In this document: piece by piece, positions 1 to 24,009 of the stretch
Numbering within the stretch: the first letter of the stretch is position 1
How the letters are laid out: each line of letters opens with the position of its first letter
Source of the DNA: a virus
Lineage: Duplodnaviria > Caudoviricetes
Direction: 5' to 3' (one strand)
IMG/VR virus record: IMGVR_UViG_3300032320_001596
Location: 1 to 24,009 of that record
DNA length: 24,009 nucleotides
Program-made: the position numbers and the translations under genes
The notes under the pieces: generated by a model
What the model was told of the DNA's origin: nothing
Databases searched by the model: none
What the model saw: the letters and a program-made list of their open reading frames with translations, nothing else

Positions 1-369
1 CAATGGTGTTCCATCACCACCTGGTGCCAAAACTCTTAAATATCCAGCTTGCCAGTTTAATTCCAATTCCACAGCGCATTGAAGGGAAACACCTTTATCG
101 CCACCTCTTCCAGTGTTGAATGTTCCTTTGCCTAATCCAGCGCGATTTGCACCAACAACAATTCGATCTAATTCAGTAAGAATAATATCGTATTCAAGTG
201 TTTCATTTCCATCAGCAAGAACACTATCTAATGGCTTTAATCCACCAGATTCAACAATCAATTCAATAATGGCTTTCAAAATGAAATTCATTTCATCACC
301 AGTTATTGTTCTGTTTCCGTTTTTTTTAATTGTTGAATTGATTCTATCAATTACTTCAGCTTCAGTCAT
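1..369 (-). CDS. Putative tail fibre / distal tail protein, N-terminal 123 aa, runs off window edge (absent from ORF track)
   Basis: Hand translation from ATG at 369: MTEAEVIDRINSTIKKNGNRTITGDEMNFILKAII...GGDKGVSLQCAVELELNWQAG..., open to base 1; starts 3 nt after the 713-aa gene stop; IKxNGNxxITG resembles Bacteroidota phage tail N-termini. Confidence 0.7.
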   Translation of the reverse strand, partial: MTEAEVIDRINSTIKKNGNRTITGDEMNFILKAIIELIVESGGLKPLDSVLADGNETLEYDIILTELDRIVVGANRAGLGKGTFNTGRGGDKGVSLQCAVELELNWQAGYLRVLAPGGDGTPL

Positions 370-372
370 ATT

Positions 373-2514
373 TTAAGAATTGAAATCTACATTGAAATCT
401 GAATTATAATCACCAGAACCAACTTTCTTATTTGATAAATAAGTGATTGTAACTGGCGAAACATTAGATTTCGATAGTGTAAATTTCAACTCTTTTACAA
501 TTCCAACAAAGGACATATTGCGCTGCTGAATAGTGTGAATCGGTTGTTTCCATTTCATTATTTCAAGAATGTTTTGAAATGAAAGGTTAAGATTCTTTTC
601 AATTTGGCGATTGTAAATTTTAACCAAATTCATAAACTTTGCATAAATATCTAAATGTGAATCTTCATCATTGAAGTAAATTGAAGCTGTTCCAAATGCG
701 CCAACATAATTGATGAATTCACCAAAATATTCAACATTATTTGATTGAATAGAATTTGAATTATAGCAAATTAATCTTTCTTCAGAAAATTCTGCTGGTG
801 GATTAATACCATCAGAACCAATTGTGAAATCAATCAGATAATTTCCACGATATAAGCCAATATTTAACTTTTCATTTGCAATCCAATCATTTTCATTATA
901 AGCTTCAGATTTTGCAAGAAAAGGAACATGCAATGTTGTTGGCTTTTTATTCTGTGAAACCATTGGCAAATAATTCACTTCTTCAATAACAGGATCATTT
1001 GTTGAAATTCCAATTGTTTTATCCTGGAATTTATCAGTTGCAAATCCATTGATAAAATCTAAATATTTCCATGATTCTTCGCCAAGGCCATAACCAAAAA
1101 GTAAAGGTTTTGAATCCAGTTCTTCATAAGTATAATCTGGAAGGCAAAATTTTGATAAATCAGCTGCTTTTGTATTGATTGCAATTCTTTGAATGGTTAA
1201 TTTATTATTCACCAAATCAAATGAAATTCCAAAAAGCGTGCGCAAAGTTTTAAAAATATCGATCAGTTTATTTGCTGGCTTGAAATTGTTCAAATCCAAA
1301 TATTGACCATGAACATTGTATTGATAGCCATCTTCATCTTGGCGCAAATCTTGAACTTTACCAGAAAAATATATCAATTCTTGATATTCATCAATGCTGT
1401 TTAATATTGAACTATCCACATTTAGCTTCAAAAATTCAAGTGATTTTTCAAATAAATGTTTCACTTTTAAGCAAGGAGAAACAGTTGTTTGCCAATTATT
1501 TGTGAAATCTTGAATCAATCCAGTTCCTTGTGTTGAAGTTGTAATGGACCACGCACCAGGCAAAGTTCCAATGGCTGAATCATCAGTTGTTCCACCTTTT
1601 ACATTTCTGATATAGATTCCATTTGTTGGTGTTCCAATCAATGTAAAAAACTCAAAATCTTCAACAACATTTAAGATTTCACCAATCATTTGTGAACGTA
1701 CTTCTTCAGCTGTTGCAGTATAAGTTAATTGAACTCTTATTCCTGTTCTGCCTGAAACAACTGGATCAACTCCTATTGGTGTAAATCCAAAAATGCGCTG
1801 GAACCAAACATAATATCGATTAAAATTATTTGCAGAATTGATTGTAAAATATTCGCCACCAGAAAGCGAAGCAGAATCATCAACTTCTAAATAAGTAACT
1901 TCTTGAATTGGAAGCAATACACCAATATTTTTCACATGTTCACCAGTTGCCAAATCATAACGATTGGCGCACCAATTATTTTGATTCATGCCTTTATTAA
2001 TGGCAGCACCATTTTCACCATTGATTTTCCATTCTTCGCGCGGAAAAGCTTCAATTGGTGGAAACTTAAAATCACCAACATTCACAGCTTCATTCTGTGG
2101 CAAAGTAGCATTCATCAAATCATTCCAAGCTTGAATTTTTTCTTCTGGAGTATCTTCAAAATCATAAACCTGAATTGTTTGCAATTCAATTTGATCAAAT
2201 CCAATATTTTCTAAAGATTGTCGCAAATCCAAACCTTCATTTTTTATCATTATAGAAATTCCACTTGAATCGCGTTTCATTCTTGCAACTCCAGTTGTTA
2301 TTTTATGCGATTGAAATGAAAGTGTAATCTTTGGTGATTTTTGGAAATACTTATTGTAAATAGCAATGTTTCTTGGCGAAGCTTTTAATGAAAATGAATA
2401 AGTGAAAATTTCATTGAATCCTGTTTCAGAAACCAAAGGATTGGAAGCCACAATTGGCACTTGAATATCTTCAGGCAAATCGAAAACATCTGAATTGATT
2501 CTAATTTCTAACAT
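373..2514 (-). CDS. Putative phage tail/baseplate structural protein (713 aa)
   Basis: Long ORF in tail operon; N-terminal ...NP...FTYSFSL..SPRN segment and C-terminal GDYNSDFNVDFN motif resemble Bacteroidota phage tail proteins. Confidence 0.6.
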   Translation of the reverse strand: MLEIRINSDVFDLPEDIQVPIVASNPLVSETGFNEIFTYSFSLKASPRNIAIYNKYFQKSPKITLSFQSHKITTGVARMKRDSSGISIMIKNEGLDLRQSLENIGFDQIELQTIQVYDFEDTPEEKIQAWNDLMNATLPQNEAVNVGDFKFPPIEAFPREEWKINGENGAAINKGMNQNNWCANRYDLATGEHVKNIGVLLPIQEVTYLEVDDSASLSGGEYFTINSANNFNRYYVWFQRIFGFTPIGVDPVVSGRTGIRVQLTYTATAEEVRSQMIGEILNVVEDFEFFTLIGTPTNGIYIRNVKGGTTDDSAIGTLPGAWSITTSTQGTGLIQDFTNNWQTTVSPCLKVKHLFEKSLEFLKLNVDSSILNSIDEYQELIYFSGKVQDLRQDEDGYQYNVHGQYLDLNNFKPANKLIDIFKTLRTLFGISFDLVNNKLTIQRIAINTKAADLSKFCLPDYTYEELDSKPLLFGYGLGEESWKYLDFINGFATDKFQDKTIGISTNDPVIEEVNYLPMVSQNKKPTTLHVPFLAKSEAYNENDWIANEKLNIGLYRGNYLIDFTIGSDGINPPAEFSEERLICYNSNSIQSNNVEYFGEFINYVGAFGTASIYFNDEDSHLDIYAKFMNLVKIYNRQIEKNLNLSFQNILEIMKWKQPIHTIQQRNMSFVGIVKELKFTLSKSNVSPVTITYLSNKKVGSGDYNSDFNVDFNS

Positions 2515-2515
2515 C

Positions 2516-5314
2516 TTAAATGTTTACAAGTGTTATTCCATAATCAGCCAATCCATCACCAGCATAAGCACCAGTTCCATCAATGATTGCTTGTGCAACT
2601 GAATTCACAACAACTTCTGATGTGATTCTGATTTCAAAGGCATTATCATAAGATTTTCTGAAATTCCAAATTTCACGAATCAGCAATTCAAAATTATCAA
2701 CTGAAATATTACTGTTGTTCAAAATCAAAAATTCCAAATCTTTTTGAAATCCAAGATTTAATTGATAAATTGTTGTATTAATGAAAGTTATTTCTTCCAA
2801 TTTATTCAATGCTGTAAGATAATAATTTCCAGCAGCGCAATTGGTGATTATCAAATCTTTTAAACTATTAAATTTTGAAAAATCAAAATTATTGGATGCG
2901 TTCTGAATGGTGAATTGTGTGATGTCAAAAAATGAAGGTTTTGAAATACGAATCAATTTTTTTCCATTTGTGCTGTAACTTTTTGTAAACAAAGAAGCTG
3001 TTGAAACAGTTACATCATCGACAGTTCCATCACTCCAATCAATGCGCATTGGTGTGCCACCGGTATAAATTGAACTGAATCTAATTATAGCAGTATTTGC
3101 CATTGCAAAAACTTCATATTTCAATTCATCCCATTGATTGTTTATTTGTTTTCGCACTACTTTTTGAACATCATTAACACTACAATTTAATTCCAGTGTT
3201 AAAATTCCTTCTGTTGTGATTGCTGTTCCTGTGTACCACTGTTGTGTTGGAACATAAGTGAATTCACCAAGTTCAATCCCTTCTTTATAAATCTTAATTG
3301 AACCAAAATCAGTGATGTTTAATAAGTTTCTTTTCAATGAAACAATTGAAAAACCAATTGAATTTGTTTTCAAAATCTCAAAATCTGGAAGCACTTCATA
3401 GTAAGAAACGCGGTTGCTTTCATTTGCTCGCACCAAATCCAATTGAATTTTTTGAAGAAACGCATTCACTTTATAAACAGCCGTTGTTCCGGCGTTAATT
3501 ACTACAGGAATGAAATTGCCATTTTCCAAAATGAAAGTAATTGTTGAATTTAACAACGGCATCAATCGTTCAGCTTCGATATTTTTCAACATCATTGTTT
3601 CAGCTTGGTAACTGATCAATGCTTTTGAATCAAAAATATAATTCTGTGGGAATAAGGTATCAAGCGCATAGCTTTCTGTGCGTGTTGCTAATTCTTGCGA
3701 AGTGGTGATATTTTGTTGCCAATTTGCCGAAAGAATGAAACTTTCAGGAATACCAAATGAATTAAAATAAACAATTTGTTTTGTTAAACAAGATTTTTCA
3801 GGATAGAAAGTTTGAATTGCTTCTATTTCATTTGAAACATTTCTTCCGTTTACAGAAAAACTTATAATATATGGATTTTCAATAATTTCAAAATTTCCAT
3901 AAGGAAATTCATCTGCTGTATTTAAAAATCCACAATAAACTAATCCTTCTATACCACCTATATAACATTTCCATACCCCATCAAATTTAACAAAAGGCGA
4001 TAATGATTCTAACCCAAATTTCCTTTTTCCATTTTCAAAACCTGAAGGTGATAAAGTATAATTTGTAGGAACTGCACCCGGATAATTGGTTGTATAAAAA
4101 CCAAATATTAAATCATTTATTTTATATTTTCGTGTTTCCCATCTTTGTATGTAAACACTTTCAATTTCAGGATTATCGGTTAGAAACTGATCTATTTGTT
4201 CTTTAAAATTCACATCAAAACCTATGTTTTGAATATGTGATTCGAATGGATTGATTCTTTTATTTGACACCAAATTTTGGGTAAATTCATAAACAAAACT
4301 TTCACCTTCATAAATCACAGAACCATAAGCAATTGCATCAATTGTTAAGTAATGAATATCAGCTCCATTCATCCAAGCCAACCAATCAGATTGTTCTTTC
4401 AAAATGCGCTTTCCAGAAGGCCACCAAGTAAGAAATTTTCCGCTTGTGTTTTGTGCTGCAATTAAATCACTTGTGTAACTATCATCTGAAGAAGCTCCAC
4501 CCCAGTGTGCAAAAAGTGTTTCACTTGTTGTTTCAATTGCTTGTGTTTCGTTGGTAAATGTTTCTGAAAATTGAACATAATACCTTCTTAAATTTGGCGC
4601 AATGTAGCCAAATGTTTGTTCAAATGGCACAGGATATTCGCGCCAAGAAGCTTCAATTTCTGCATCAATATATTTTGAAACATCAACATGTGAAATTGAA
4701 TTTTCATCCAATACACAATCAATAGAGGTAACAAAATCAAAATTGCCAGAATTGTATTGTCTTTCTAAAAAAAGCGAAGCCTTCAATTCATATCCATCTC
4801 GCACCCCTGGTTGATGATAGGCAATTGAATTGGCTTCGCTTATGTATTTATCAGGTGAATCTGGTTGATTGCTTGTGAATTCAATCACCAATTCTTGGAT
4901 TGCTTCTTTTGCACGAATGATAAAAGAGGGTGTGCTGCCTGGAAACTCTATTATTGGAAATTCTAAATCATAAAAAGCATTTAAAATATATCTTTGTTGC
5001 AATTTTTCGAACATAATTGAACGAAATTCTGCCAATGTGCCAACAAATCCTGATCCTGGAATCTGCCATAAATTCAAATAGTTTTCTGCATTTGTTCCAT
5101 CCACAGCAACCAAATCAATGTTTTCCCTATTTCCATTTTCAGGATTAGTAAATGCAAATCTGTAAGTTGTTCCAATTGATGGAAGTTCTTCAAACAGCAA
5201 ACGAATAAATGGTTTAACAGTTGCAGTTTCAAAATACAAATTGGATTGAACTGTAAAATCAATTGCATTTTTCGTTAAAGAACAAATGTAAGGTTGTTTG
5301 GTTATTGTTATCAT
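2516..5314 (-). CDS. Putative phage tail structural protein (932 aa) with C-terminal PKD-like/leucine-rich-repeat-like region
   Basis: Long ORF coupled to neighbours; YFNSFGIPESF motif; IDWSDG and LxxLxIxN-type repeats near C-terminus. Confidence 0.55.
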   Translation of the reverse strand: MITITKQPYICSLTKNAIDFTVQSNLYFETATVKPFIRLLFEELPSIGTTYRFAFTNPENGNRENIDLVAVDGTNAENYLNLWQIPGSGFVGTLAEFRSIMFEKLQQRYILNAFYDLEFPIIEFPGSTPSFIIRAKEAIQELVIEFTSNQPDSPDKYISEANSIAYHQPGVRDGYELKASLFLERQYNSGNFDFVTSIDCVLDENSISHVDVSKYIDAEIEASWREYPVPFEQTFGYIAPNLRRYYVQFSETFTNETQAIETTSETLFAHWGGASSDDSYTSDLIAAQNTSGKFLTWWPSGKRILKEQSDWLAWMNGADIHYLTIDAIAYGSVIYEGESFVYEFTQNLVSNKRINPFESHIQNIGFDVNFKEQIDQFLTDNPEIESVYIQRWETRKYKINDLIFGFYTTNYPGAVPTNYTLSPSGFENGKRKFGLESLSPFVKFDGVWKCYIGGIEGLVYCGFLNTADEFPYGNFEIIENPYIISFSVNGRNVSNEIEAIQTFYPEKSCLTKQIVYFNSFGIPESFILSANWQQNITTSQELATRTESYALDTLFPQNYIFDSKALISYQAETMMLKNIEAERLMPLLNSTITFILENGNFIPVVINAGTTAVYKVNAFLQKIQLDLVRANESNRVSYYEVLPDFEILKTNSIGFSIVSLKRNLLNITDFGSIKIYKEGIELGEFTYVPTQQWYTGTAITTEGILTLELNCSVNDVQKVVRKQINNQWDELKYEVFAMANTAIIRFSSIYTGGTPMRIDWSDGTVDDVTVSTASLFTKSYSTNGKKLIRISKPSFFDITQFTIQNASNNFDFSKFNSLKDLIITNCAAGNYYLTALNKLEEITFINTTIYQLNLGFQKDLEFLILNNSNISVDNFELLIREIWNFRKSYDNAFEIRITSEVVVNSVAQAIIDGTGAYAGDGLADYGITLVNI

Positions 5315-10152: not shown

Positions 10153-10398
10153 TTATTCTAATTGCTTTTGCTGTAAAATACACTTGAACAATTCACTGTT
10201 TGAATTCATTTGCCCTGTTGCTTTGAGAAAATCACATTCAACTTTTGCTGAATTTACCAAAACAGCACCAATTGAAGCGATTTGTTTTGCTGTGATGCTT
10301 TCATTGTAACGCTGTTCTGGAGTTAATGATTCATCATTCAATCTTTCCAATGCTACAAACATGTGATCTCTTAAATCACTCATTTTGTTTTTTGCCAT
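10153..10398 (-). CDS. Conserved phage hypothetical protein (81 aa; start MAKNKMSDLRDH)
   Basis: KMSDLRDHMFVALERLND...AKQIASIGAVLVNSAKVE pattern recalled as a partner of HNH-like genes; downstream start reduces overlap with the HNH ORF. Confidence 0.65.
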   Translation of the reverse strand: MAKNKMSDLRDHMFVALERLNDESLTPEQRYNESITAKQIASIGAVLVNSAKVECDFLKATGQMNSNSELFKCILQQKQLE

Positions 10399-10960
10399 AA
10401 TCTTTAATTTTTTTATTGATTTTGTTAATAATGCTTTGAACTTCGCGAATTTCATCAGGATAGCTCAAATTTTTCTGTTTGTTTTTGATAGCCAATTCAC
10501 TATCAGTTAATAATTCCAAATTTTCAATCACACAATTTAATGAATTTCCATCTTTATAACACACATTCATTCCTGGTGCAATTGTGCCATGATTTGTGAT
10601 CCATAAATAACGATTTAAGAAAACAAATTCATTTTCAATTTTTATAACTTTGAAGCTTCGATTATTATTTGACCAAATCTTGATGGTTCCTTGACCAGTT
10701 ACACCAGTTTTCAACCATCTTTTTTCATTACAAATTCGAAACATTCCAAGTGATGTATTTCTGATGTTGATTTGCTTTTTTTCAAAATCTGTTCTTTTTA
10801 GGAACAAATATCTTCGCTTTTTCTCAATGTGTTTTTTGCTCCAGCCTTTTTTCTTGTGGTATTTTTCATTGAAATAAATAGCAATTTCAGTATCACCTTT
10901 TGATTTGTAATTTTCGCGCAAATACTGAATTTGTTCTTCATTCCAATATTCCATTTCCAT
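10376..10960 (-). CDS. HNH endonuclease-family protein (HNH_3-like), start uncertain (10984/10960/10954)
   Basis: NRYLWITNHGTIAPGMNVCYKDGNSLNCVIENLELL motif; N-terminal WNEEQIQYLRENY...EIA helix-turn-helix-like segment. Confidence 0.75.
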   Translation of the reverse strand: MEMEYWNEEQIQYLRENYKSKGDTEIAIYFNEKYHKKKGWSKKHIEKKRRYLFLKRTDFEKKQINIRNTSLGMFRICNEKRWLKTGVTGQGTIKIWSNNNRSFKVIKIENEFVFLNRYLWITNHGTIAPGMNVCYKDGNSLNCVIENLELLTDSELAIKNKQKNLSYPDEIREVQSIINKINKKIKDYGKKQNE

Positions 10961-11025
10961 TCGCTTTAAACCAAGCTGAAACAATTCATTTCATTCTTTT
11001 ATCAATAACATTTTTGCCAATTAAA

Positions 11026-11343
11026 TCAATGCAAAAATCTTTCATCGCCATCATTTAATTCGTAAATAATTTTGAAATCTAAAGCACAAGCCAGTTCTTT
11101 TTCAATGCGTGCGCCTTTGCTTTCTTTCCAGCCATCAAGCAAATAGATGCCTTTGCAATACATCATTGCTTTTATATCTTCTCTCATAAAGGCATTCCAA
11201 GTTTTACTGTGTTCGTGCGGCAAATCCATTGGTGAAATTGGTTGATAGCCTTTATTTAATTCAAGCAATGTTTGTTTTGCTTTTTCAAATTGCGCTTTGG
11301 CATTTGGGTTGTTGGTGATAGCACCTGAAATGTATATTTTCAT
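11026..11343 (-). CDS. DUF4406 family protein (nucleoside deoxyribosyltransferase-like fold)
   Basis: KIYISGAIT...W..FMREDIKAMMYCKGIYLLDGWKESKGARIE..LA signature. Confidence 0.88.
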   Translation of the reverse strand: MKIYISGAITNNPNAKAQFEKAKQTLLELNKGYQPISPMDLPHEHSKTWNAFMREDIKAMMYCKGIYLLDGWKESKGARIEKELACALDFKIIYELNDGDERFLH

Positions 11344-17004: not shown

Positions 17005-17042
17005 TGGTTTTAATTTCATGGGTGCGAGAATTAATTTTTTGA

Positions 17043-17050
17043 CAAATATA
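17043..17050 (-). promoter_or_regulatory. Bacteroidota-type -7 element TATATTTG of the replication operon
   Basis: CAAATATA on + strand, between a terminator and the operon's first gene. Confidence 0.65.
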
Positions 17051-17060
17051 TATAATTAAT

Positions 17061-17087
17061 TGAATTAAATGAATTAAATGAATTAAA
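17061..17087. repeat. Tandem (TGAATTAAA)x3, putative operator
   Basis: Three perfect 9-mers; recurs at 23885-23913. Confidence 0.8.
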
Positions 17088-17097
17088 TTTTTGATAT

Positions 17098-17127
17098 AAA
17101 AAAAGGCCTACAAAATTGCAAGCCTTT
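17098..17127 (-). terminator. Intrinsic terminator after portal/lysis operon
   Basis: Minus strand AAAGGCTTGCAA-TT-TTGTAGGCCTTT (two G-U pairs) then U-tract. Confidence 0.7.
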
Positions 17128-18772: not shown

Positions 18773-20080
18773 TTAAACAGTTTTAGTTCCTGATTTATTT
18801 TCATTCAATGTTGTTGGCACAATGTGTTCAAAGGTCCATTTCACATTGCTTGGCCATCCATTAACAATTCCAACTGTGCGCAATGGTTTTAACACAATCA
18901 TTTGTTCTGCATAAGAAGCTGAAATGGTGTTATCCATTCCAACTCTTTTATCACTTCCAGAACCAGCTCCCATTGAATTGGATTGTGTGCTGATATTAGC
19001 CAATGAAACATCAACCCCAATTGCGCGCGCTGTTTGCATATCAGCTTCTTGCAAAGATGTTAAGAACTGATCCTTTTTGATTGGATCTTTCAATTCTGTG
19101 ATTTTCCATCCTGGAATTTCTTTTCCTGTTGCTTGATGAATTCCAAAATGTGAATAAAAGTTTCTGCCAGCATTTTCAAAACCAAGCAAGTAAGTATTCA
19201 TTTCATTCATTTTTTCATCTTGCAAAGTGCGCTTTTCTGCTGGTGTTTTAGTGTTCCAATCTTTATAAACTTTTTCCCAGTAATCATAAGGAATTTCAAT
19301 ATGGTAACGCAAATTAAATCCATTGTTATTGATTTTATTCATTAATAATGGAACAGAAAGCGAATAATCCAACCAACCATTTGATTCAAACAATCCAATG
19401 TGTTGTGGAACAGCGTAAAGTGTGCGCCCTGGTGATGGAAGATTGTTATGTGTAATGAATTTCTTTCTGAATTTTAAAACTTCTTCCCTTCTTACTGAAT
19501 AATCATCAAGAAATTTCACATCAACATAATCTGAAGGTCTATCTGGCCAATTGGAATTGATAAACACATTTTTAATAATGTTATTTTCAATCAATCCAAA
19601 GCGGCAAAATTCAGCTTCTTGATGCCAAATATTTACAATTTTATCATTCTTAATGTTGAAAATAAATTCACAGAAAACATTGTTATACATTTTCAAATCC
19701 ATCCAGCGTTCCAACATGATTAATTCCAAATCATTATTTTCCAAAAATTCTTCTATTTCTGGAATGGCTGAATAATCCCTTTTGATTCCTTCTTCAGTTC
19801 TAATTTCACGATAATATTGAGGACCACGACCAAACAAGGTTGTTGCCATTTTTATCAAAAGCGGATAAGCAGTTGTTGTTTTTTCCAGTTTTTGCCTTTG
19901 TTCTGTTGGTTTTAAGTTATTGGTTCCCCAATATTGCATGGTTGTGCCTTGAACATAAGGTGTTGAAATTGGTGTTGTTGGCTTTGTTGCTGCATCTGGT
20001 GCTAAAGAAACAACAGTTCCAGAACCATGAAGCACTGCAAAATTTTCACCAACAAATTCAACTTGGTTTTCTTTTTTCAT
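18773..20080 (-). CDS. Putative portal protein, Bacteroidota phage type (435 aa)
   Basis: WGTNNLKP, PSPGRTLYAVP, LRYHIEIPYDYW, LLGFENAG, GSGSDKR, TTLNENKSG motifs; size fits a portal. Confidence 0.7.
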   Translation of the reverse strand: MKKENQVEFVGENFAVLHGSGTVVSLAPDAATKPTTPISTPYVQGTTMQYWGTNNLKPTEQRQKLEKTTTAYPLLIKMATTLFGRGPQYYREIRTEEGIKRDYSAIPEIEEFLENNDLELIMLERWMDLKMYNNVFCEFIFNIKNDKIVNIWHQEAEFCRFGLIENNIIKNVFINSNWPDRPSDYVDVKFLDDYSVRREEVLKFRKKFITHNNLPSPGRTLYAVPQHIGLFESNGWLDYSLSVPLLMNKINNNGFNLRYHIEIPYDYWEKVYKDWNTKTPAEKRTLQDEKMNEMNTYLLGFENAGRNFYSHFGIHQATGKEIPGWKITELKDPIKKDQFLTSLQEADMQTARAIGVDVSLANISTQSNSMGAGSGSDKRVGMDNTISASYAEQMIVLKPLRTVGIVNGWPSNVKWTFEHIVPTTLNENKSGTKTV

Positions 20081-20391
20081 AGCATAACTCTTTTATCATT
20101 GAACATTAAAATCAAAGGCAAATGCACTGGCTTCAATGAAGAAGTTTGGCGATCACCCATGTAAAGTGTAAAAATTCGTGTGAAATTTGAATAATGGTTT
20201 CTTTTTTTAACCTTTAAATCTTGAATTTTTTGAGTTTCTGTGCGTTCTGTTTTTGCTTTGGTAACTCTTCCAGTAATTGTGCGCAATTTTCCACCACTTT
20301 TGCGCATAATATCAAGCGAAACATATTGGATTTTAACCAATTCGCCAGCATCAATTGCTTCCACTACTTTTTCAAATCGAATGTGATTCAT
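20077..20391 (-). CDS. Conserved phage protein preceding portal (104 aa)
   Basis: NHYSNFTR...VHLPLILMFNDKRV C-terminus; ATGA coupling to portal. Confidence 0.65.
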   Translation of the reverse strand: MNHIRFEKVVEAIDAGELVKIQYVSLDIMRKSGGKLRTITGRVTKAKTERTETQKIQDLKVKKRNHYSNFTRIFTLYMGDRQTSSLKPVHLPLILMFNDKRVML

Positions 20392-20430
20392 AGTACAAAA
20401 ATCAAAGATTTTACATAAAAATATAATGAC
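20392..20430 (-). promoter_or_regulatory. Putative late promoter (GTCAT...GATTTTTG-N4-ATG)
   Basis: Same motif and 27-nt offset as at 5880 and 6017. Confidence 0.65.
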
Positions 20431-20460
20431 AAAAAAAAGCCACCTTTTCAGATGGCTTTT
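20431..20460 (-). terminator. Intrinsic terminator
   Basis: AAAAGCCA-ccttttcaga-TGGCTTTT with 8-nt U-tract on minus strand. Confidence 0.75.
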
Positions 20461-20505
20461 CCGCTTTCCATTTTACCTAAATTTACAATATGGCACTATT
20501 GAGAT

Positions 20506-20787
20506 TCAAATATAAATATTTTTTGTAAGAATCAAATAAATCGCAAAAACTGTTGCAGAAAATAAAGCTAAAAATCCAGCAATGAATAATAAAAATGCAA
20601 AAATGTTTTCAATGCAAGATGTGGATTTGCTTTCATTCAATCCGTTTTCAAGAAAATCAATTTCATCTTTGATTAAGATTGCGGCTTCAGAATCGGGCGC
20701 AATATCGCCTTCAATAACTAAAAATTGATAAGATTTTCTTAATTTTTTAAGTCGTTGATTGATTGGATGGTTTTGGTTTTGGTTCAT
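20506..20787 (-). CDS. Hypothetical membrane protein (93 aa)
   Basis: C-terminal hydrophobic segment; co-oriented. Confidence 0.6.
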   Translation of the reverse strand: MNQNQNHPINQRLKKLRKSYQFLVIEGDIAPDSEAAILIKDEIDFLENGLNESKSTSCIENIFAFLLFIAGFLALFSATVFAIYLILTKNIYI

Positions 20788-20944
20788 AATTTTGACATTT
20801 AAGAATTAATTTTGGGTATAAATCTAATTTTTTTCTGGCATCGGATTCACTATCCGCATCAATGAAGCGATAAATAATTTTTTGTTTTAGTTTTCCATCA
20901 ACAGGAACAAAGTTTTTTACTGTGAATTTGAAGGTTGCCATCAT
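20747..20944 (-). CDS. Hypothetical protein (65 aa)
   Basis: Packed between neighbours; IDADSESDARKKL helix motif. Confidence 0.55.
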   Translation of the reverse strand: MMATFKFTVKNFVPVDGKLKQKIIYRFIDADSESDARKKLDLYPKLILKCQNYEPKPKPSNQSTT

Positions 20945-20946
20945 TT

Positions 20947-21762
20947 CTATTTTTCAGGATTTGATTTAATATTCTGTTCTGATAATCTATCCAACTCAAA
21001 CATCACCGTGAACCAGTTTTGTTTTGCTTGATCTTCGTAATTTCCGAAAACGCCAGTATGCGACAAATCCAACAAAGCACCAGCCCAACCGCGATCATCC
21101 ATTTTGATTTTGCCACTTGATTCTGCAAAAATATACTTCAACATCTTGAAACGCTGTTCACGAACTGATTTGAAATAAATGAAATTTGCCACCAACAGAT
21201 TCAAAGGTAATTTGTTGAAATCTTCAATTCTTGATTTGCATCTTTCCGCATTGAATTCTTCGCGAATGTCGGTGTTCCATTTGGCTGTTTTTCTGAAAGC
21301 TGTTAAATCTGTTCGCTCTGGTCGATACATATATGACATCATCACCGCTAATTGTTCTGCATCCTTTCCATTTGAAGCTTTCACAAATGCCGTTTCAATC
21401 AAAGTGAATTCTTCAATGGTACATTTCGCCATTAAACCAATTGGACCGTAAAATCGTTCTTTGGCAACCAATATTGAAGGTAACAATTGACCAACCAAAA
21501 GCGGTTCTTGCAAGAATACAAAATCCAAGTGTGGCAAAATATCAACCCATTCGCTGGCTGTAATTTTGTTGGTGTATCTATCAGGAACATCGGAAAGGAT
21601 TCTGAAAGCTACAATTCGCAAAGCATTGTATTCTACGGCTGTGGCTTGCTTGTTTATGAATTGTGATAATAGTTGGCAAACATTGATAAATTCAAGTTGC
21701 GTAAATTCTGAATAGGAAGATTTTAGATGGTATTCTTCGGAGTTGATTAGGAGTTTTTTCAT
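20947..21762 (-). CDS. Conserved Bacteroidota phage protein, possible tail assembly chaperone (271 aa)
   Basis: FYGP....CTIEEF, LAVMMSYMYRP, GW...LLDLSHTGVFG motifs recalled from Bacteroidota prophage structural modules; function inferred. Confidence 0.55.
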   Translation of the reverse strand: MKKLLINSEEYHLKSSYSEFTQLEFINVCQLLSQFINKQATAVEYNALRIVAFRILSDVPDRYTNKITASEWVDILPHLDFVFLQEPLLVGQLLPSILVAKERFYGPIGLMAKCTIEEFTLIETAFVKASNGKDAEQLAVMMSYMYRPERTDLTAFRKTAKWNTDIREEFNAERCKSRIEDFNKLPLNLLVANFIYFKSVREQRFKMLKYIFAESSGKIKMDDRGWAGALLDLSHTGVFGNYEDQAKQNWFTVMFELDRLSEQNIKSNPEK

Positions 21763-22004
21763 TTGTTGAAATTCATTAAAGCCATAAATGAAACTGAATG
21801 ATCTACTAATTTTTGACTATAAGATGATGCAAGTTTCAATAAAACAGAATTAACTAATTGTAAGTCAAAATCATCTTTATTTTCTTGGTTTTCAATAAAT
21901 TTTTCAATTGATTCAAGAACGTGAACTTCTAATGATAATTGCTTAATTCTTTTAAGTCGTTTTTGTTCAAACATTTCTTTTTCCATTTCTTCTCCTATGT
22001 TCAT
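21759..22004 (-). CDS. Hypothetical protein (81 aa)
   Basis: ATGA overlaps with both the integrase and the 271-aa gene. Confidence 0.6.
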   Translation of the reverse strand: MNIGEEMEKEMFEQKRLKRIKQLSLEVHVLESIEKFIENQENKDDFDLQLVNSVLLKLASSYSQKLVDHSVSFMALMNFNK

Positions 22005-22801
22005 ATTGGTAAATTTATACGATTCAACATTGCTTGTGAAACGTGGGTGTATATTTCAGTTGTTTTGGTTGAAGAATGACCAGCAATCTTTTGAATCATT
22101 CTAATATCAGTGCCGTTTTCCAACAAATTTGTAAAACACGAATGGCGCAATTGGTGGATGTGACCTTTTTCATCAATATAATTTTTGAAAATTGCCTGGC
22201 AACTTCTTACAGAATATTGCAATGAATATTGACCATTGAAAAGAAATTCTTTTGGCTTGTAAACTTTGTAATATTCACGAAGCAATTCAAGTATTTTTTC
22301 ACTCAAAGGAACAACGCGATCTTTTCTTCCCTTGGCATTTTTGATGTGAATAATCATTCGCTTTGAATCAATATCAGAAATGCGAAGATTTACCACTTCA
22401 GAAACACGCAAGCCAACTGAAAAAGTCAACGAAAGCAATGTTTTGTGTTTCAGATTTTCAATTTTAGAAAGCGATTGTAAAATATGATTTGTGTCAATCA
22501 CAACTGGCAATTTCTTTTCCTTTTTTGCATAAGGAATAAAGCGAAATTTAAAAGGTTGGTGAACTGTCAATTTATAAAACAATTTCAATGCTGAATGAGC
22601 GTGCCTTTGTGAATTGATGCACTTCGCCGTCAATAGGTACTTTTCAATTTCATCACTTGAAATATGTTTTGGCGAATCTTTTTCTTTGAATTTATTCAAG
22701 AAAATTTCTACTTGACAAGAGTAGTTTTTGATTGTTGATGGCGAGTATTGTTTGACTTTCAATACTTGCTCATACTTTTCTAAGTAGTTTGAGTTTTTCA
22801 T
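22001..22801 (-). CDS. Tyrosine recombinase, integron-integrase-like but lacking the IntI-specific insertion (266 aa)
   Basis: Catalytic R132, K157, H216-x-x-R219, H242, Y251; IntI-like YSPSTIKNY, KKLPVV, KGRKDRVVPL, TTEIYTHV. Confidence 0.92.
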   Translation of the reverse strand: MKNSNYLEKYEQVLKVKQYSPSTIKNYSCQVEIFLNKFKEKDSPKHISSDEIEKYLLTAKCINSQRHAHSALKLFYKLTVHQPFKFRFIPYAKKEKKLPVVIDTNHILQSLSKIENLKHKTLLSLTFSVGLRVSEVVNLRISDIDSKRMIIHIKNAKGRKDRVVPLSEKILELLREYYKVYKPKEFLFNGQYSLQYSVRSCQAIFKNYIDEKGHIHQLRHSCFTNLLENGTDIRMIQKIAGHSSTKTTEIYTHVSQAMLNRINLPI

Positions 22802-22835
22802 GCTCTATTTATTTGATTTTTAATTTTTTAAGTGT

Positions 22836-22860
22836 GGATGTTTACATATTATTGTTAGGC
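22836..22860 (+). other. attI-like recombination site (core GTTAGGC at 22854-22860)
   Basis: Exact GTTRRRY core 53 nt upstream of integrase start, with no hairpin partner on the integrase side. Confidence 0.6.
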
Positions 22861-23121
22861 ACAATTAATTTCTTTTAATAATGCTTTTATCAATTCATCT
22901 CCTATAACAGAACACATATTTTGATCTTTCAATTTTTCGAGTAAAGAAATTAACTGTTCACTTCGTTGCTTAACAGCAGGTATATTCAATTTTTTAACCT
23001 TACACATCAGGTCATTTGTAACTGCATATATATCTGTTGCCTTATCTTCTGTCATTGTAGTTCCAATTGATAGTTCTACTAATGCTTCAATCTCTTTTAA
23101 TTTATCAATGTATTCTTTCAT
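22855..23121 (-). CDS. Cassette 1 hypothetical protein (88 aa)
   Basis: ORF whose TAA is the TTA of the GTTA core and whose start lies inside the attC-like loop. Confidence 0.65.
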   Translation of the reverse strand: MKEYIDKLKEIEALVELSIGTTMTEDKATDIYAVTNDLMCKVKKLNIPAVKQRSEQLISLLEKLKDQNMCSVIGDELIKALLKEINCA

Positions 23122-23168
23122 ATTTCTACTTTTAAATCGGTTAAAAAACTAAATATACCTGCAACACG
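22855..23168 (+). mobile_element. Integron-like gene cassette 1
   Basis: Starts G|TTAGGCA; complementary TGCTTAAC at 22967-22974 (7/8); attC-like hairpin closes at G|TT 23168. Confidence 0.65.
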
Positions 23169-23174
23169 TTATAA
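22967..23174 (+). repeat. attC-like site 1 (24-bp arms, 139-nt loop)
   Basis: TAAC-A-GCAGGTATATTCAATTTTTTAACC (22976-22999) / GGTTAAAAAACTAAATATACCTGC (23139-23162)-AACAC-GTT; 22/24 paired. Confidence 0.75.
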
Positions 23175-23623
23175 GCCATTTTAGGACAGCTTCACAATTA
23201 TCAAATCTGCCTCTGACGGAATTTCAGAAACCTTAATTCTGATTTCATTTCCCCATTGGTCGCCTGTCGTTTTTAAATCTACTTCAACACCATTTTGAAT
23301 ATACTCAATGATGCTATCGGTTCTTATATCTTCCAAATCATTACCACCAAGTTTGCCTTTAAAAAACTCACTTGTTTCTTTTGGAAATGATAAACTGTTT
23401 TCAATACAGAATTTAACTGCATTAAAGTGTTTCTGAAATTCTTTACTTTCTGTGCTTGAATAAGCTGTTACGTTTAATGATACTGACATTGTTTTTAAAT
23501 TAAATTGTTAAGCCAAACACGAATAAAAACGGCTTATAACAGTGGTTTGGCAAAATACCGCCACAAGCCTTTGTGCTAAATTTAAACATTGTGCAAGGCG
23601 GTACTTCGCCAAGCCACCAAACG
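23169..23623 (+). mobile_element. Integron-like gene cassette 2
   Basis: Starts G|TTATAAGCCATTTT; complementary AAAACGGCTTATAAC at 23526-23540 (14/15); attC-like hairpin closes at G|TT 23623. Confidence 0.75.
23181..23489 (-). CDS. Cassette 2 hypothetical protein (102 aa)
   Basis: Single ORF filling the cassette; A-rich start context. Confidence 0.7.
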   Translation of the reverse strand: MSVSLNVTAYSSTESKEFQKHFNAVKFCIENSLSFPKETSEFFKGKLGGNDLEDIRTDSIIEYIQNGVEVDLKTTGDQWGNEIRIKVSEIPSEADLIIVKLS

Positions 23624-23629
23624 TTATCC
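23531..23629 (+). repeat. attC-like site 2 (21-bp arms, 34-nt loop)
   Basis: TAAC-A-GTGGTTTGGCAAAATACCGCC (23542-23562) / GGCGGTACTTCGCCAAGCCAC (23597-23617)-CAAAC-GTT; 18/21 paired. Confidence 0.8.
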
Positions 23630-23851
23630 AAAAATCCACCATATCAAACTCCAAACAAGCACATTTGCCAACAATGTTCCAAAGAACATCAAGAAAAGTG
23701 AAAACTTTTTGAATCCTGGTTTTATCAATTTTGATTCATAGGTGTAATTCCACACTGAATAAATTTCACTAAAGCGGAAAATGAACAGAAATGTTCCAAT
23801 AAAAAGCCAAATAAACAGCTTAAAAATTCTTGTGATTTTGTTTTTCATCAT
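23624..23851 (-). CDS. Small two-TM membrane protein (75 aa)
   Basis: Two hydrophobic segments; stop TAA coincides with GTTA core at 23623-23626. Confidence 0.6.
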   Translation of the reverse strand: MMKNKITRIFKLFIWLFIGTFLFIFRFSEIYSVWNYTYESKLIKPGFKKFSLFLMFFGTLLANVLVWSLIWWIFG

Positions 23852-23865
23852 ATTGATTTTTTTTA

Positions 23866-23873
23866 CAAATATA
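23866..23873 (-). promoter_or_regulatory. Bacteroidota-type -7 element TATATTTG upstream of the cassette/integrase operon
   Basis: CAAATATA on + strand, 14 nt before ATG at 23851. Confidence 0.6.
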
Positions 23874-23884
23874 AAATAGAAAAA

Positions 23885-23913
23885 TGAATTAAATGAATTA
23901 AATGTGAATTAAG
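23885..23913. repeat. TGAATTAAA x2 + TG + TGAATTAAG, putative operator
   Basis: Near copy of the array at 17061-17087, in the same position relative to the promoter. Confidence 0.75.
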
Positions 23914-24009
23914 ATTTTTTTATAAGGGTTTTTTCTTGCTTAAAAATCTAAACATCACATTTTTAAGCCTTTACAAAAATAAATTTAAAAAATAAACCCA
24001 AGAAAAAAG

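Follow-up and report, generated by a model that had tools for sequence, protein, structure and literature searches.

A candidate hairpin-first gene cassette in a phage-borne integron-like array, with a gene that starts inside its own putative recombination site

In classical integrons, a tyrosine recombinase acts on attC sites, whose recombination is held to need an IntI-specific domain. An attC site, regarded as largely non-coding, is an inverted repeat of imperfect complementarity whose base is formed by RYYYAAC and GTTRRRY boxes and whose structure is conserved more than its sequence; the crossover falls at G|TT of the R′ box. The IntI-specific insertion binds the flipped-out bases of attC, of which each site carries two, and such extrahelical bases, with an unpaired central spacer, determine which strand is chosen. 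The classical cassette consists of a promoterless ORF upstream of its attC, lies on the top strand and is expressed from Pc at the integrase end. At the attP hairpin of CTX-phi, XerCD recombines a folded single strand without having the IntI insertion. In shufflons and related switches (Rci/PilV of R64; Gin of Mu and Cin of P1), a constant N-terminus is joined to alternative C-termini at a short site that is itself translated.

In phages, CALINs and integron fragments have been described in 21 phages with IntegronFinder and HattCI (Qi et al. 2023, PMC9892861). According to the available parts of that paper, they carry attC-type sites and cassettes, including in a Polaribacter (Bacteroidota) phage, and DNA methyltransferase cargo, as do the loci described here; unlike here, those parts mention no dedicated phage recombinase ('Xer' occurs 0 times) and no genes starting inside the site. 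The PeSL cassettes of T4-type phages (Arbiol et al. 2010, PMC2839356; Comeau et al. 2014, PMC4122927) share other traits with the present array: as far as the accessible text goes, they consist of small, dispensable phage genes that lie between copies of a stem-loop motif, with circular by-products and with whole-gene insertions, deletions and replacements between close relatives (PMC2839356). However, their motifs join an early promoter of the sigma-70 type to a terminator stem-loop and they move by homologous recombination, with no recombinase, TAAC/GTTA boxes or cassette-specific end boxes in the same portions of text. We found no published description of a phage hairpin-first array, the nearest being the attC clusters in phages, as presented in the available parts of Qi et al. 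2023 (PMC9892861).

We analysed a window of 24,009 nt of phage DNA (the whole stretch given by IMG/VR record IMGVR_UViG_3300032320_001596). We propose that positions 22855-23168 are a hairpin-first gene cassette (cassette 1) in an integron-like array that the phage carries and that the neighbouring Xer-type recombinase is predicted to mobilise, and put the probability of this reading at about 75%. As part of the same reading, the putative recombination site of cassette 1 would double as coding sequence, because an 88-aa gene starts in its 139-nt loop and runs through the 3′ arm and the GTTA box. The features are as follows, from the recombinase gene outwards:

22001..22801, minus strand: gene for a 266-aa Xer-type tyrosine recombinase, the putative array integrase (assigned by Pfam, NCBIfam and a structure-based alignment)
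22802..22860, minus strand: putative attI-like region, with a TAAC box (22857->22854) 56 nt before the recombinase ATG, then AATAATATGTAAACA
22854..22865, minus strand: cassette-end box, ATTGTGCCTAAC on the minus strand, with the TAA stop at 22857-22855; its last C (22854) belongs to the attI-like site
22855..23121, minus strand: ORF of 88 aa with an ATG start; front, residues 1-44; arm and box, residues 42-54; back, to residue 88
22858..22961, minus strand: inner inverted repeat in the back half, arms 22858-22875 / 22943-22961, with a 15-bp stem in the minus-strand fold
22963..22974, minus strand: GTTA box after hairpin 1, GTTAAGCAACGA on the minus strand; GTT is Val50
22976..22999, minus strand: 3′ arm of hairpin 1, read as VKKLNIPA
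23000..23138, minus strand: 139-nt loop, made of a 17-nt leader, the ATG and codons 1-41
23139..23162, minus strand: 5′ arm of hairpin 1, preceding the ATG on the coding strand; the copy in the related locus L005 is identical
23163..23171, minus strand: head of cassette 1, formed by a TAAC box (23171->23168) and an unpaired spacer of 5 nt; the TAA is that of cassette 2 and the C opens cassette 1
23169..23623, minus strand: candidate cassette 2, with hairpin 23537-23626, GTTA box, 102-aa ORF 23181-23489 and end box ATGGCTTATAA
23624..23930, minus strand: array-distal 75-aa ORF (23624-23851) and its AT-rich upstream region; the stop is the TAA of the first TAAC box

The recombinase matches Pfam Phage_integrase (9.4e-36) and has an N-terminal SAM-like domain. 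Against NCBIfam, it scored 174 bits with XerA (cutoff 220) and 150 bits, in two stretches, with the integron integrase family TIGR02249 (cutoff 265); against PRK15417 it scored 88 bits (cutoff 435). It aligns end to end with XerA (5hxy), and in the alignment with VchIntIA (2a3v) residues 4-179 correspond to 3-182 and residues 209-256 to 260-307, with 29 residues opposite 77 in between. As 29 residues stand where IntI4 has 77, the IntI-specific insertion (I2 region) is absent from the recombinase and, judged from this alignment, the array is not a classical integron. Action of the recombinase on the hairpins is a prediction.

The TAAC box 56 nt upstream of the recombinase ATG is a putative attI-like docking site. 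It lies at -55 to -57 from the recombinase start in 23 of 34 related loci and at -40 to -50 in seven others, whose start codon was a guess; four loci lack it. A conserved TAnnATATAT-like motif comes after the box. The window and L007, a locus whose recombinase is 95% identical, part and rejoin at this box, and the contigs of sequencing run X2 switch partners within GTTAGG (22854-22859).

Comparison with related sequences indicates that relatives swap whole cassettes, with junctions exactly at TAA|C. The window and two metagenome loci, L005 and L006, have only 22854-23171 in common, in three unrelated contexts, and the homology stops at TAAC 22854-22857. L007 matches 24009-23622 and 22864-22802, sharing the array-distal region 23624-23930 at 96%, and has 1081 nt of other cassettes in place of 22865-23621. 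Logan contigs from four runs (X2-X5) break at 22854-22859, 23168 and 23626: X2 record 2 joins cassette 1 at 22854 from foreign sequence, contigs of X3, X4 and X5 part from the window just before 23168, X4 record 17 and X5 record 26 each span 23168-23626 with six differences and have different sequence before 23168, and X3 record 5 spans 23166-23482. The junctions at 22854-22859, 23168 and 23623-23626 thus fall where integron crossover places them. No circular junction or recombination product was found among the joints listed for the contigs of the four runs; all of those joints skip 332-343 nt, have sides of 20-23 nt and fit other cassettes with the same boxes.

Each unit reads, on the recombinase-sense strand, C, about 4 unpaired nt, a stem of about 20 bp with its loop, T, a GTTA box, the body and a box ending in TAA. 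Across 38 loci with a related recombinase, the sequence upstream of the recombinase gene (about 98 kb) holds 119 TAAC...GTTA hairpin pairs and the sequence downstream of it (about 145 kb) none, with about 0.003 per kb in shuffled sequence; owing to the common descent of related hairpin families, these counts are not independent events. The 5′ spacer measures 4 nt in 74/94 hairpins, the 3′ spacer is 0-1 nt in 86/94 and a G follows TAAC in 88/94. Compensatory changes were seen in 17/25 pairs, with TAAC and GTTA invariant and a median stem of 20 bp, paired cells made up 97.9% against 73.5% in shuffles (a value reached in 0/500 shuffles), and positions 2-14 were paired in 89-100% of 45 distinct arm pairs, against 48% with partners shuffled; pairing is partly built into these statistics, because the hairpins used in them were selected by duplex energy; downstream regions, shuffles and models from which the window was left out serve as controls. 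Of 146 hairpins, 104 fold more stably on the recombinase-sense strand and six on the opposite strand, with 36 equal, and the consensus holds some invariant G.T pairs.

The boxes show a second kind of pairing. The 12-nt box after a hairpin pairs with the end box of its own unit and not with the box preceding its own hairpin: out of 8 extended positions, 5.8 agree with the next TAAC box in reverse complement (n=76), compared to 2.8 of 8 for the box before the same hairpin (n=93) and 2.75 for random pairs (Mann-Whitney p = 1e-18). Two covariance models were built from other loci without the window, one of their training sequences (L012:3290-3436) having the outer arms of hairpin 1. Model R2 (44 hairpins) matches 22973-23169 on the minus strand with 35.1 bits (E 3.9e-5), its best match in the window being the neighbouring hairpin at 23523-23634 on the same strand (68.9 bits), with all remaining matches at E >=0.7; model R1 (27 hairpins) finds the hairpin of cassette 2 at 23525-23634 with 74.4 bits on the minus strand and 13.1 on the plus strand. 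Together with the junctions and the box test, the R2 match bears out the suggestion of an earlier note on this DNA that the site is attC-like, in that it belongs to a large TAAC...GTTA family that bounds mobile units. An Rfam search of 22700-24009 gave one chance-level match (E 0.69) and none better, and a search for tRNA genes found none. In three cultured flavobacterial phages with recombinases 33-38% identical (Freya_10, Ingeline_1 and Leef_1), our hairpin finder detected no comparable TAAC...GTTA arrays upstream of the integrase gene.

Classical integrons, above all sedentary chromosomal ones whose attC sites are homogeneous, are among the known systems closest to the array. Like them, it has a tyrosine recombinase gene at its end with a putative docking site just upstream, imperfect hairpins with AAC/GTT boxes at the base that bound the cassettes, cassette ends that are split between neighbours, end boxes complementary within their own cassette only, folding biased to the strand of the recombinase gene, and a structure that is conserved over a variable sequence; the classical crossover G|TT corresponds to TAA|C here on the recombinase-sense strand. 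In contrast to them, the recombinase is of Xer type, without the IntI insertion, the element resides in phage genomes, and the genes lie on the 'bottom' strand, after their own hairpin, and point to the recombinase. The stems are continuous, with G.T wobbles and a bulge of 4 nt on the 5′ side and 0-1 nt on the 3′ side, and no pair of single flipped-out bases like that of attC is evident in them. CTX-phi also pairs an Xer-type enzyme lacking the IntI insertion with a one-strand hairpin, but involves a single integration site of a filamentous phage, host enzymes and no cassette arrays.

The loops also differ from those of classical sites. Instead of preceding the site, the ORFs follow the hairpin and, in 42 of 96 hairpins, the start codon lies in the loop, with the GTT read in frame in 33 of these 42. 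Many hairpins of the family have loops of 14-34 nt without a start codon; loops of up to 139-375 nt hold start codons or whole genes. Among the 61 hairpins with loops of at least 45 nt, 42 hold the start codon of an ORF that runs through the 3′ arm, and in L007 a complete 96-aa ORF lies within a 365-nt loop, in agreement with the idea, put forward from the window alone, that the loop is cargo space. Across at least a dozen unrelated families of arms, the crossover box keeps its GTT in frame. The region from -20 to -1 of the loop-start genes is 56% A and 4% G. A promoter-like TATATTTG occurs at 23866-23873, upstream of the array-distal ORF, and in the distal end of the array only; it fits TAnnTTTG, which we take to be a Bacteroidota promoter element. 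The strict TAnnTTTG motif is found within 90 nt upstream of 0/43 loop-start genes, and the junctions lie between unrelated arms.

These features bear on an alternative in which the hairpins act mainly in RNA, where they could be processing, stability or translation-presentation elements of a polycistronic mRNA, homologous recombination at repeated motifs shuffles the units in a PeSL-like manner, and the recombinase is an ordinary phage integrase. The wobbles do favour the coding strand (104/146 hairpins, with G.U invariant in the consensus), and G.T wobbles on that strand would stabilise mRNA hairpins equally. Array ORFs of at least 45 aa are mostly on the recombinase-sense strand (119, against 30 on the opposite strand), start codons sit in unpaired A-rich loops, the promoter-like sequence is confined to the distal end, and PeSL-mediated shuffling with mini-circles is documented in the available part of PMC2839356. 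However, junctions occur at TAA|C regardless of arm sequence, between hairpins without homology, and each cassette has end boxes of its own, which pair across that unit only, as a circular DNA intermediate predicts. Hairpins are also found on one side of the recombinase gene only (119 against 0), with the TAAC box at a fixed 55-57 nt, and several of the host phages are large and T4-like, and the flanks examined hold no further sign of lysogeny. We therefore consider an RNA role with PeSL-like shuffling unlikely, and favour the integron-like array.

The array is part of a phage genome, whose order here is terminase, array, recombinase, portal. The window and L007 are syntenic, including the portal gene, and phage genes adjoin other loci too. 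This is relevant to the proposal that 22854 is a prophage end (attL/attR) and 22855-24009 a cassette array of the host chromosome, which would agree with a recombinase gene 53 nt away from the junction, a position common for int genes, with the record being a 58%-complete linear fragment, and with the recombinase side and the cassette side of X2 being on separate contigs that have only GTTAGG in common. In L007, however, a large terminase gene (phrog_2, 3.3e-23) follows the array and the recombinase and portal genes precede it, so the array is internal to the phage, and 27 more viral loci share this layout, phage genes lying on the other side. A loose end of 30 letters after GTTAGG in X2 record 1 occurs nowhere in the window and is neutral in this respect. 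A prophage end is hence very improbable.

We now turn to cassette 1, which on the minus strand consists of C, a 5-nt spacer, the hairpin, the GTTA box, the body and TAA. The arms of hairpin 1 (22976-22999 / 23139-23162) are 24 nt long, complementary at 22/24 positions and 139 nt apart, with GCTTATAAC ... GTTAAGC as base boxes on the minus strand. The two mismatches are G.T wobbles on the minus (coding) strand and A.C mismatches on the plus strand. This is the sole inverted repeat of such quality in the whole window: a search for 24-nt repeats with at most two mismatches and a loop of up to 400 nt gave one, versus none in each of 20 block shuffles. The description given in the earlier note, of an ORF that starts inside the hairpin loop, reads through the arm and the TAAC box and stops on the TTA of the crossover core, is confirmed. 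The start codon at 23121 is within the loop; the arm is read, together with the box at 22968-22974 (GCTTAAC, which is GTTAAGC in coding sense), as part of ...VKKLNIPAVKQRSEQL..., the arm and GTTA box giving the peptide KKLNIPAVKQ; and the TAA stop (22857-22855) falls inside GTTAGGC (22854-22860) and the TAAC box 22854-22857.

An inverted arm upstream of the start had also been expected in homologous genes, and this was found in part. L005 carries the repeat (arms 878-901 / 1040-1063, loop 138 nt), and L012 is identical to hairpin 1 over the outer 14 nt, with an inner stem that co-varies. In L006 the gene is intact and the upstream arm is partly deleted (an 8-nt deletion), and in L004, a viral locus, the front domain is present with neither arm nor box and no hairpin. 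As these two loci keep the gene or its front domain, the 88-aa gene does not need the hairpin. The inner repeat of the back half is also present in L005 (1079-1096 / 1164-1181) and L006.

Inverted arms of 24 nt around a start codon, beside a tyrosine recombinase gene, could also belong to an invertible switch, in which the recombinase flips the 139-nt loop and the front is then read towards 23163, as a truncated product ending 6 codons past the arm; the right arm does encode VKKLNIPA on the plus strand as well. Any inverted repeat, however, encodes one peptide on both arms, and such arms occur in 90-odd hairpins, many with loops of 14-34 nt that lack a start codon. The strand-specific wobbles and asymmetric spacer also speak against a switch, as does the lack of any strand-changing joint among those listed for the contigs of the four runs, contigs being prone to drop rare variants. 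We regard inversion as even less probable than a prophage end. Finally, a chance repeat over a spurious ORF, for which one may invoke an AT-rich window with many short ORFs and weak repeats, is scarcely credible in view of the single repeat against none in each of 20 shuffles, the conservation in L005, the covariance-model match, the 47 homologues of the protein and the excess of synonymous differences.

The 88-aa protein has no family in Pfam, NCBIfam or PHROGs. Its AlphaFold2 model (mean pLDDT 82) contains helices at residues 2-18, 25-44, 47-67 and 72-86; a VIA-align fold search of 48,161 chains returned generic helical hairpins only, the best with a Z of 7.6 over 47 residues, which is below the tool's own informative level for helical proteins, and an ESM Atlas search gave unnamed clusters only, at 0.83. 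With the single protein as the query, no relative was found among viral contigs. Alignment A1 of the family recovered one distant locus among viral contigs (L004), two among metagenome contigs (L005 and L006) and none among genome contigs, and the DNA context of the gene's relatives is accordingly that of these three loci only. A blastn search of 20000-24009 against isolated phages gave no match.

The N-terminal 44-50 residues are at least 90% conserved across 47 homologues and are joined to 22 unrelated C-terminal families. Free combination of the front and back halves was a prediction set beforehand, and it held: front A (MKEYIDKL...) is fused to 22 back families, unrelated by blastp, among 44 homologues, and the back half of the window is found with three different fronts (P0001, P0046 and P0048). 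In 9 of 24 homologues with another back half, the similarity stops exactly at V50. The linker foreseen in the earlier note is present as well, since the 3′ arm of many cassettes is read as LNI(P/S)(A/D)V. The front differs from that of L004 by 13 synonymous and 9 non-synonymous codons and, compared to X5 record 21, 7 of the 10 differences among those listed are synonymous; these are signs that the front half of the ORF is under purifying selection. In summary, the dual-coding and chimera reading is supported by these comparisons. A diversity-generating retroelement was considered and rejected, as there is no reverse transcriptase gene and the backs are unrelated and not point-varied; an IS200/IS605-type hairpin element was likewise rejected, the window being without a HUH transposase gene.

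The cargo of the arrays in these loci includes two N6_N4 DNA methylases and Lar-like, PAPS-reductase-like and GNAT proteins, and 109/119 array ORFs are without a Pfam family. In L005, a C5 methylase gene likewise starts within a hairpin loop.

For the integron-like array, we propose a cut by the recombinase at TAA|C of the recombinase-sense strand in its folded form, comparable to that made by IntI in the attC bottom strand. The unit would be excised as a circle, in which its two boxes complete the stem, and would be inserted at the TAAC box 56 nt before the recombinase gene. The gene would normally travel with its own start, because crossover usually takes place at the opposite hairpin end (TAA|C). 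The loop may tolerate any content, which in this and 41 other hairpins comprises a leader rich in A, the start codon and the codons directly after it, and the cargo is likely to be small accessory or counter-defence proteins.

As the GTT is usually in frame, fronts (loop and arm) and backs (body) could be re-joined without a break of frame, either through a rare cut of the opposite strand at G|TTA or through homologous exchange in shared arms. We tentatively raise the possibility that the translated hairpin is a protein-shuffling device, in which any loop-encoded front (MKEYIDKL..., MSKEMRxxIDxF..., MKDLKHIKRFNESEENLNISDV) can be fused to any body, either through a recombinase cut at G|TTA on the 'wrong' strand or through arm-guided exchange, much like phase-compatible exon shuffling in phage DNA. 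The shared leaders may be functional tags, for example for virion loading of the cargo or for Shine-Dalgarno-less initiation. Shufflons similarly join a constant front to alternative backs across a translated recombination site, but they invert within one locus, whereas here the alternatives are spread across phages and cassettes and no inversion was seen in the contigs.

The present loci link a simpler, Xer-type enzyme to about 100 attC-like phage hairpins, nearly half of which double as the 5′ ends of genes. If the enzyme is active, the real role of the IntI insertion and the origin of integrons from Xer systems would become testable, and the array would show how phages may store and trade small accessory or counter-defence genes. 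The recombination site would then supply a start codon and a leader, and new proteins could arise by the re-pairing of halves, which bears on the question of cassette birth; the clearest example is the 88-aa gene family, with one front joined to 22 backs and one back to three fronts.

The recombinase and three small ORFs lie at the right end of the window, all on the − strand. The ORF nearest the recombinase gene overlaps an inverted repeat (hairpin 1), and no other repeat of this quality was found in the window, or in 20 shuffles.

22001–22801, − strand, tyrosine recombinase, 266 aa
22855–23121, − strand, ORF of 88 aa
22976–22999 and 23139–23162, arms of hairpin 1, 24 nt each, 22/24 complementary, 139 nt between them
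23181–23489, − strand, ORF of 102 aa
23624–23851, − strand, ORF of 75 aa

The ATG of the 88-aa ORF (23121) lies in the loop of hairpin 1, the 3′ arm and the next GTTAAGC are translated as VKKLNIPAVKQ, and the TAA stop (22857–22855) falls within GTTAGGC. Every element of what the earlier note had observed, namely a start inside the 139-nt loop, an arm and box read as protein and a stop within the crossover core, is confirmed; its interpretation, that the arm is dual-coded and could give rise to chimeric proteins, is supported. What is distinctive at this locus is the unusually long translated loop, together with the clearest record of combinations between the N-terminal half of the protein (the front, residues 1–44) and the C-terminal half (the back).

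Using the recombinase as query, we recovered 34 viral and 6 genomic loci. A finder for TAAC and GTTA 40–650 nt apart with inner flanks forming a duplex of −13 kcal/mol or better was applied to 38 loci with related recombinases. This finder returned 119 hairpins in ~98 kb upstream of recombinase genes, 0 in ~145 kb downstream and almost none in shuffles. Since the hairpins were chosen by pairing energy, their pairing is partly built in; the controls for this selection were the one-sided distribution, the shuffles and covariance models blind to the window, which detected just two significant sites across its 24 kb, 23523–23634 and 22973–23169 (hairpin 1), both on the − strand. Among 94 hairpins, the base after TAAC is G in 88, an unpaired 4-nt spacer is found in 74, the median stem is 20 bp long, 0–1 nt precede GTTA in 86 and a T stands immediately before it in 92. 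RNAalifold gave the same structure for 27 short hairpins, with compensatory changes at 17/25 pairs and 97.9% paired cells compared to 73.5% in shuffles, a level reached by 0/500 shuffles. A TAAC box lies 55–57 nt before the recombinase start codon in 23/34 loci, followed by a conserved AT-rich motif. Hairpin folding is strand-specific, the recombinase-sense strand (− in the window) being the more stable in 104/146 hairpins and the opposite strand in 6. Some G·T pairs are invariant in the consensus; the hairpins may also act in mRNA, possibly alongside a role in DNA, and wobble pairs would stabilise them there too. In ten Polaribacter phage isolates from one host (Freya_1 to Freya_10, H13–H23; 43,978–48,920 bp), the integrase gene lies 71 to 4168 from the record start; no regular TAAC...GTTA array was found by the finder in these phages, whose recombinase is only 33.5% identical.

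We compared junctions between relatives. The 88-aa gene is also present in two metagenome loci, L005 (85% identity) and L006 (80%), with homology running from the TAAC before the hairpin to the TAAC holding the stop codon, and unrelated flanks. L007, a viral contig with a recombinase 95% identical to that of the window, shares 24009–23622 and 22864–22802 with it; the intervening 1081 nt of L007 consist of other cassettes. Breaks at these places recur in Logan contigs from four public runs (X2–X5): one X2 contig follows the recombinase side as far as GTTAGG and then enters other sequence, and a second comes from other sequence to join the cassette at 22854; in X3, X4 and X5, from three further studies, the unit 23168–23626 is found alone, with other sequence before 23168. 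These coinciding breaks place the unit boundaries at the TAAC boxes on the recombinase-sense strand, and 22855–23168 is exactly one unit. The same junctions indicate that the hairpin travelling with a gene is the one upstream of it. No circle junction or loop inversion was seen in the Logan contigs of the four runs. Cassette 2 (102-aa ORF and hairpin, 23168–23626) is nearly unchanged in X3, X4 and X5 (3–6 differences), two of these runs being labelled single organisms. The box regions 23159–23183 and 23521–23555 occur on many contigs of X3–X5 at high summed depth, and thus the box family is multi-copy in these samples.

When the 12-nt box that follows a hairpin (GTTAxxxxxAGT) is compared with the reverse complement of the TAAC box closing its unit, the next one along, the two agree at 5.8/8 variable positions (mode 7, n = 76); for the box before its own hairpin the figure is 2.8/8 (n = 93; random level 2.75). 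This box test is blind to which hairpin travels with a body (the part after the GTTA box). This pattern is as would be expected from units excised at a box: the unit would be cut out, closed into a circle, and the two boxes would complete the stem. Taken with the junction comparisons, the box test gives a unit that reads, on the recombinase-sense strand, C, spacer, hairpin, GTTA box, body, TAA. Array ORFs of 45 aa or more number 119 on this strand versus 30 on the opposite one.

Loop-start genes, defined as ORFs of at least 40 aa that have their first ATG between the arms and extend beyond the GTTA box, were counted in 96 hairpins (two from L017 duplicate L018; L038 was left out as identical to L036). 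They were found in 42/96, that is, in 42/61 hairpins with loops of at least 45 nt and 0/35 with shorter loops; 33 of these 42 genes read the GTT in frame, as valine. A gene start inside the hairpin is the rule for long loops, and the proposal of the loop as cargo space is borne out by this proportion and by L007, where the 365-nt loop of a hairpin at 3202–3632 encloses a whole 96-aa ORF (3299–3589). This hairpin is followed by a tiny unit (3629–3669) with little beyond two boxes around a short stem. L012 has two clear loop-start cases adjoining the recombinase, one with the outer arms of the window and a co-varying inner stem. In L005, a TAAC...GTTA hairpin (1410–1534) two units downstream of that locus's relative of the 88-aa gene holds in its loop the start of a C5 cytosine DNA methylase gene (1464–2012; Pfam, 3.8e-15).

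A accounts for 56% and G for 4% of the 20 nt before loop start codons. No strict TAnnTTTG was found within 90 nt upstream of any of 43 loop-start genes, and one lies ahead of the array-distal 75-aa ORF (23866–23873), which we take to be a Bacteroidota promoter element; from this we infer that the array is read through from its distal end. The AT-rich block upstream of this ORF (23858–23925, including TATATTTG at 23866–23873) has an 81%-identical copy 6.8 kb off (17035–17099), which precedes other small − strand ORFs; the repeated block may act as a common promoter.

For the 88-aa protein, 47 homologues were found; residues 1–44 are at least 90% conserved among them and the remainder is not. 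By blastp, the 44 C-terminal parts group into 22 clusters, one of the window's type with 20 sequences, one zinc-ribbon-like with 4 and 20 with a single sequence each. Residues 45–88, used alone as query, retrieved P0046 and P0048, which join the window's back to two further fronts, so that the halves do vary combinatorially, as had been predicted. The 24 homologues carrying a different back remain similar to the window's protein up to V50, encoded by the GTT (9 homologues), R53 (3), residues 57–61 (5), residues 44–48 (5), residue 51 (1) or residue 55 (1). Related loci have three recurrent loop-encoded leaders, each followed by four or five different bodies. A 276-aa array ORF of L012 (2395–3222, no Pfam family) starts with MSKEMRKYINSF..., a leader common to several small loop-start genes elsewhere. 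One homologue (P0009, 128 aa) has 40 extra residues before MKEYIDKL, and therefore an open frame through the expected 5′ arm region. The front differs from that of L004, a 675-kb viral contig, by 13 synonymous and 9 non-synonymous codons (19/32 base differences at third positions), and of 10 differences listed for an X5 contig, 7 are synonymous; the front appears to be under protein-level constraint. AlphaFold2 (mean pLDDT 82, pTM 0.48) predicts two helical hairpins, residues 2–44 and 47–86, which would meet at the translated arm. The protein matched no family and gave no informative fold hit (Pfam, NCBIfam, PHROGs, ESM Atlas, fold search). Fronts and backs could be re-paired if the opposite strand were cut at G|TTA, or through homologous exchange in the shared arms; both fit.

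A second inverted repeat lies within the back half of the gene (22858–22875 / 22943–22961), with a nested box-like pair, GTTAATTTCTTT and AAAGAAATTAAT; L005 and L006 retain this repeat, and five homologues part from the window right after RSEQL, at the inner GTTA. Together, these suggest that the window cassette is a composite of two former units. An inverted arm upstream of the start is present in L005 and L012. In L006 the gene is kept although this arm has an 8-nt deletion, and in L004 the front domain lacks arms, boxes and a nearby recombinase. Hence, the hairpin is dispensable for the gene.

The window is a complete IMG/VR virus contig (24,009 bp, linear, completeness estimate 58%) with genes for a tape-measure protein, a primase and an HNH endonuclease and a weak portal match. 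ORF 11026–11343 is nucleoside 2-deoxyribosyltransferase-like (phrog_355, 1.4e-24) and adjoins the HNH endonuclease ORF (10376–10984; Pfam HNH_3, 4.6e-8). The gene order in the window/L007 lineage is terminase large subunit (L007 843–2384; phrog_2, 3.3e-23), array, recombinase, portal gene. Other loci, on contigs of up to 465 kb, neighbour terminase, portal, thymidylate synthase, RNA ligase, helicase, homing endonuclease and GroEL genes. Where a host is named, it belongs to Bacteroidota; one example is a Sunxiuqinia indica contig with a recombinase gene adjoining a terminase gene. No Pfam family was found for 109/119 array ORFs; the others include two N6/N4 DNA methylases, a PAPS-reductase-like protein and a GNAT. 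A Lar-like restriction-alleviation protein is also among the array ORFs (28.4 bits, cutoff 28.6).

The recombinase has catalytic and SAM-like domains, as in Xer and IntI-type enzymes, and scores under every curated cutoff. It aligns end to end with archaeal XerA and has 29 residues opposite 77 of Vibrio IntI4, and thus lacks the integron-specific insertion. The array is predicted to work in an integron-like way. Read on the recombinase-sense strand, its unit is oriented like an integron cassette's bottom strand; as in integrons, the recombinase is encoded on this strand too. However, its genes are inverted relative to classical cassettes (119 versus 30 ORFs), and the array lacks two defining features of integrons, the IntI insertion and an ORF before attC expressed from Pc. 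Clusters of attC sites occur in 21 phages (Qi et al. 2023, PMC9892861), the excerpted text mentioning neither a dedicated Xer-type enzyme nor translated sites. The nearest phage analogue, as excerpted, is the PeSL cassettes (PMC2839356), which are, however, homology-dependent. Full-text literature searching found no published description of a phage hairpin-cassette system. In the excerpted text of Escudero et al. 2016 (PMC4792948), IntI is framed as an innovation on an Xer-like ancestor, and it is on this view that the phage hairpin arrays bear.
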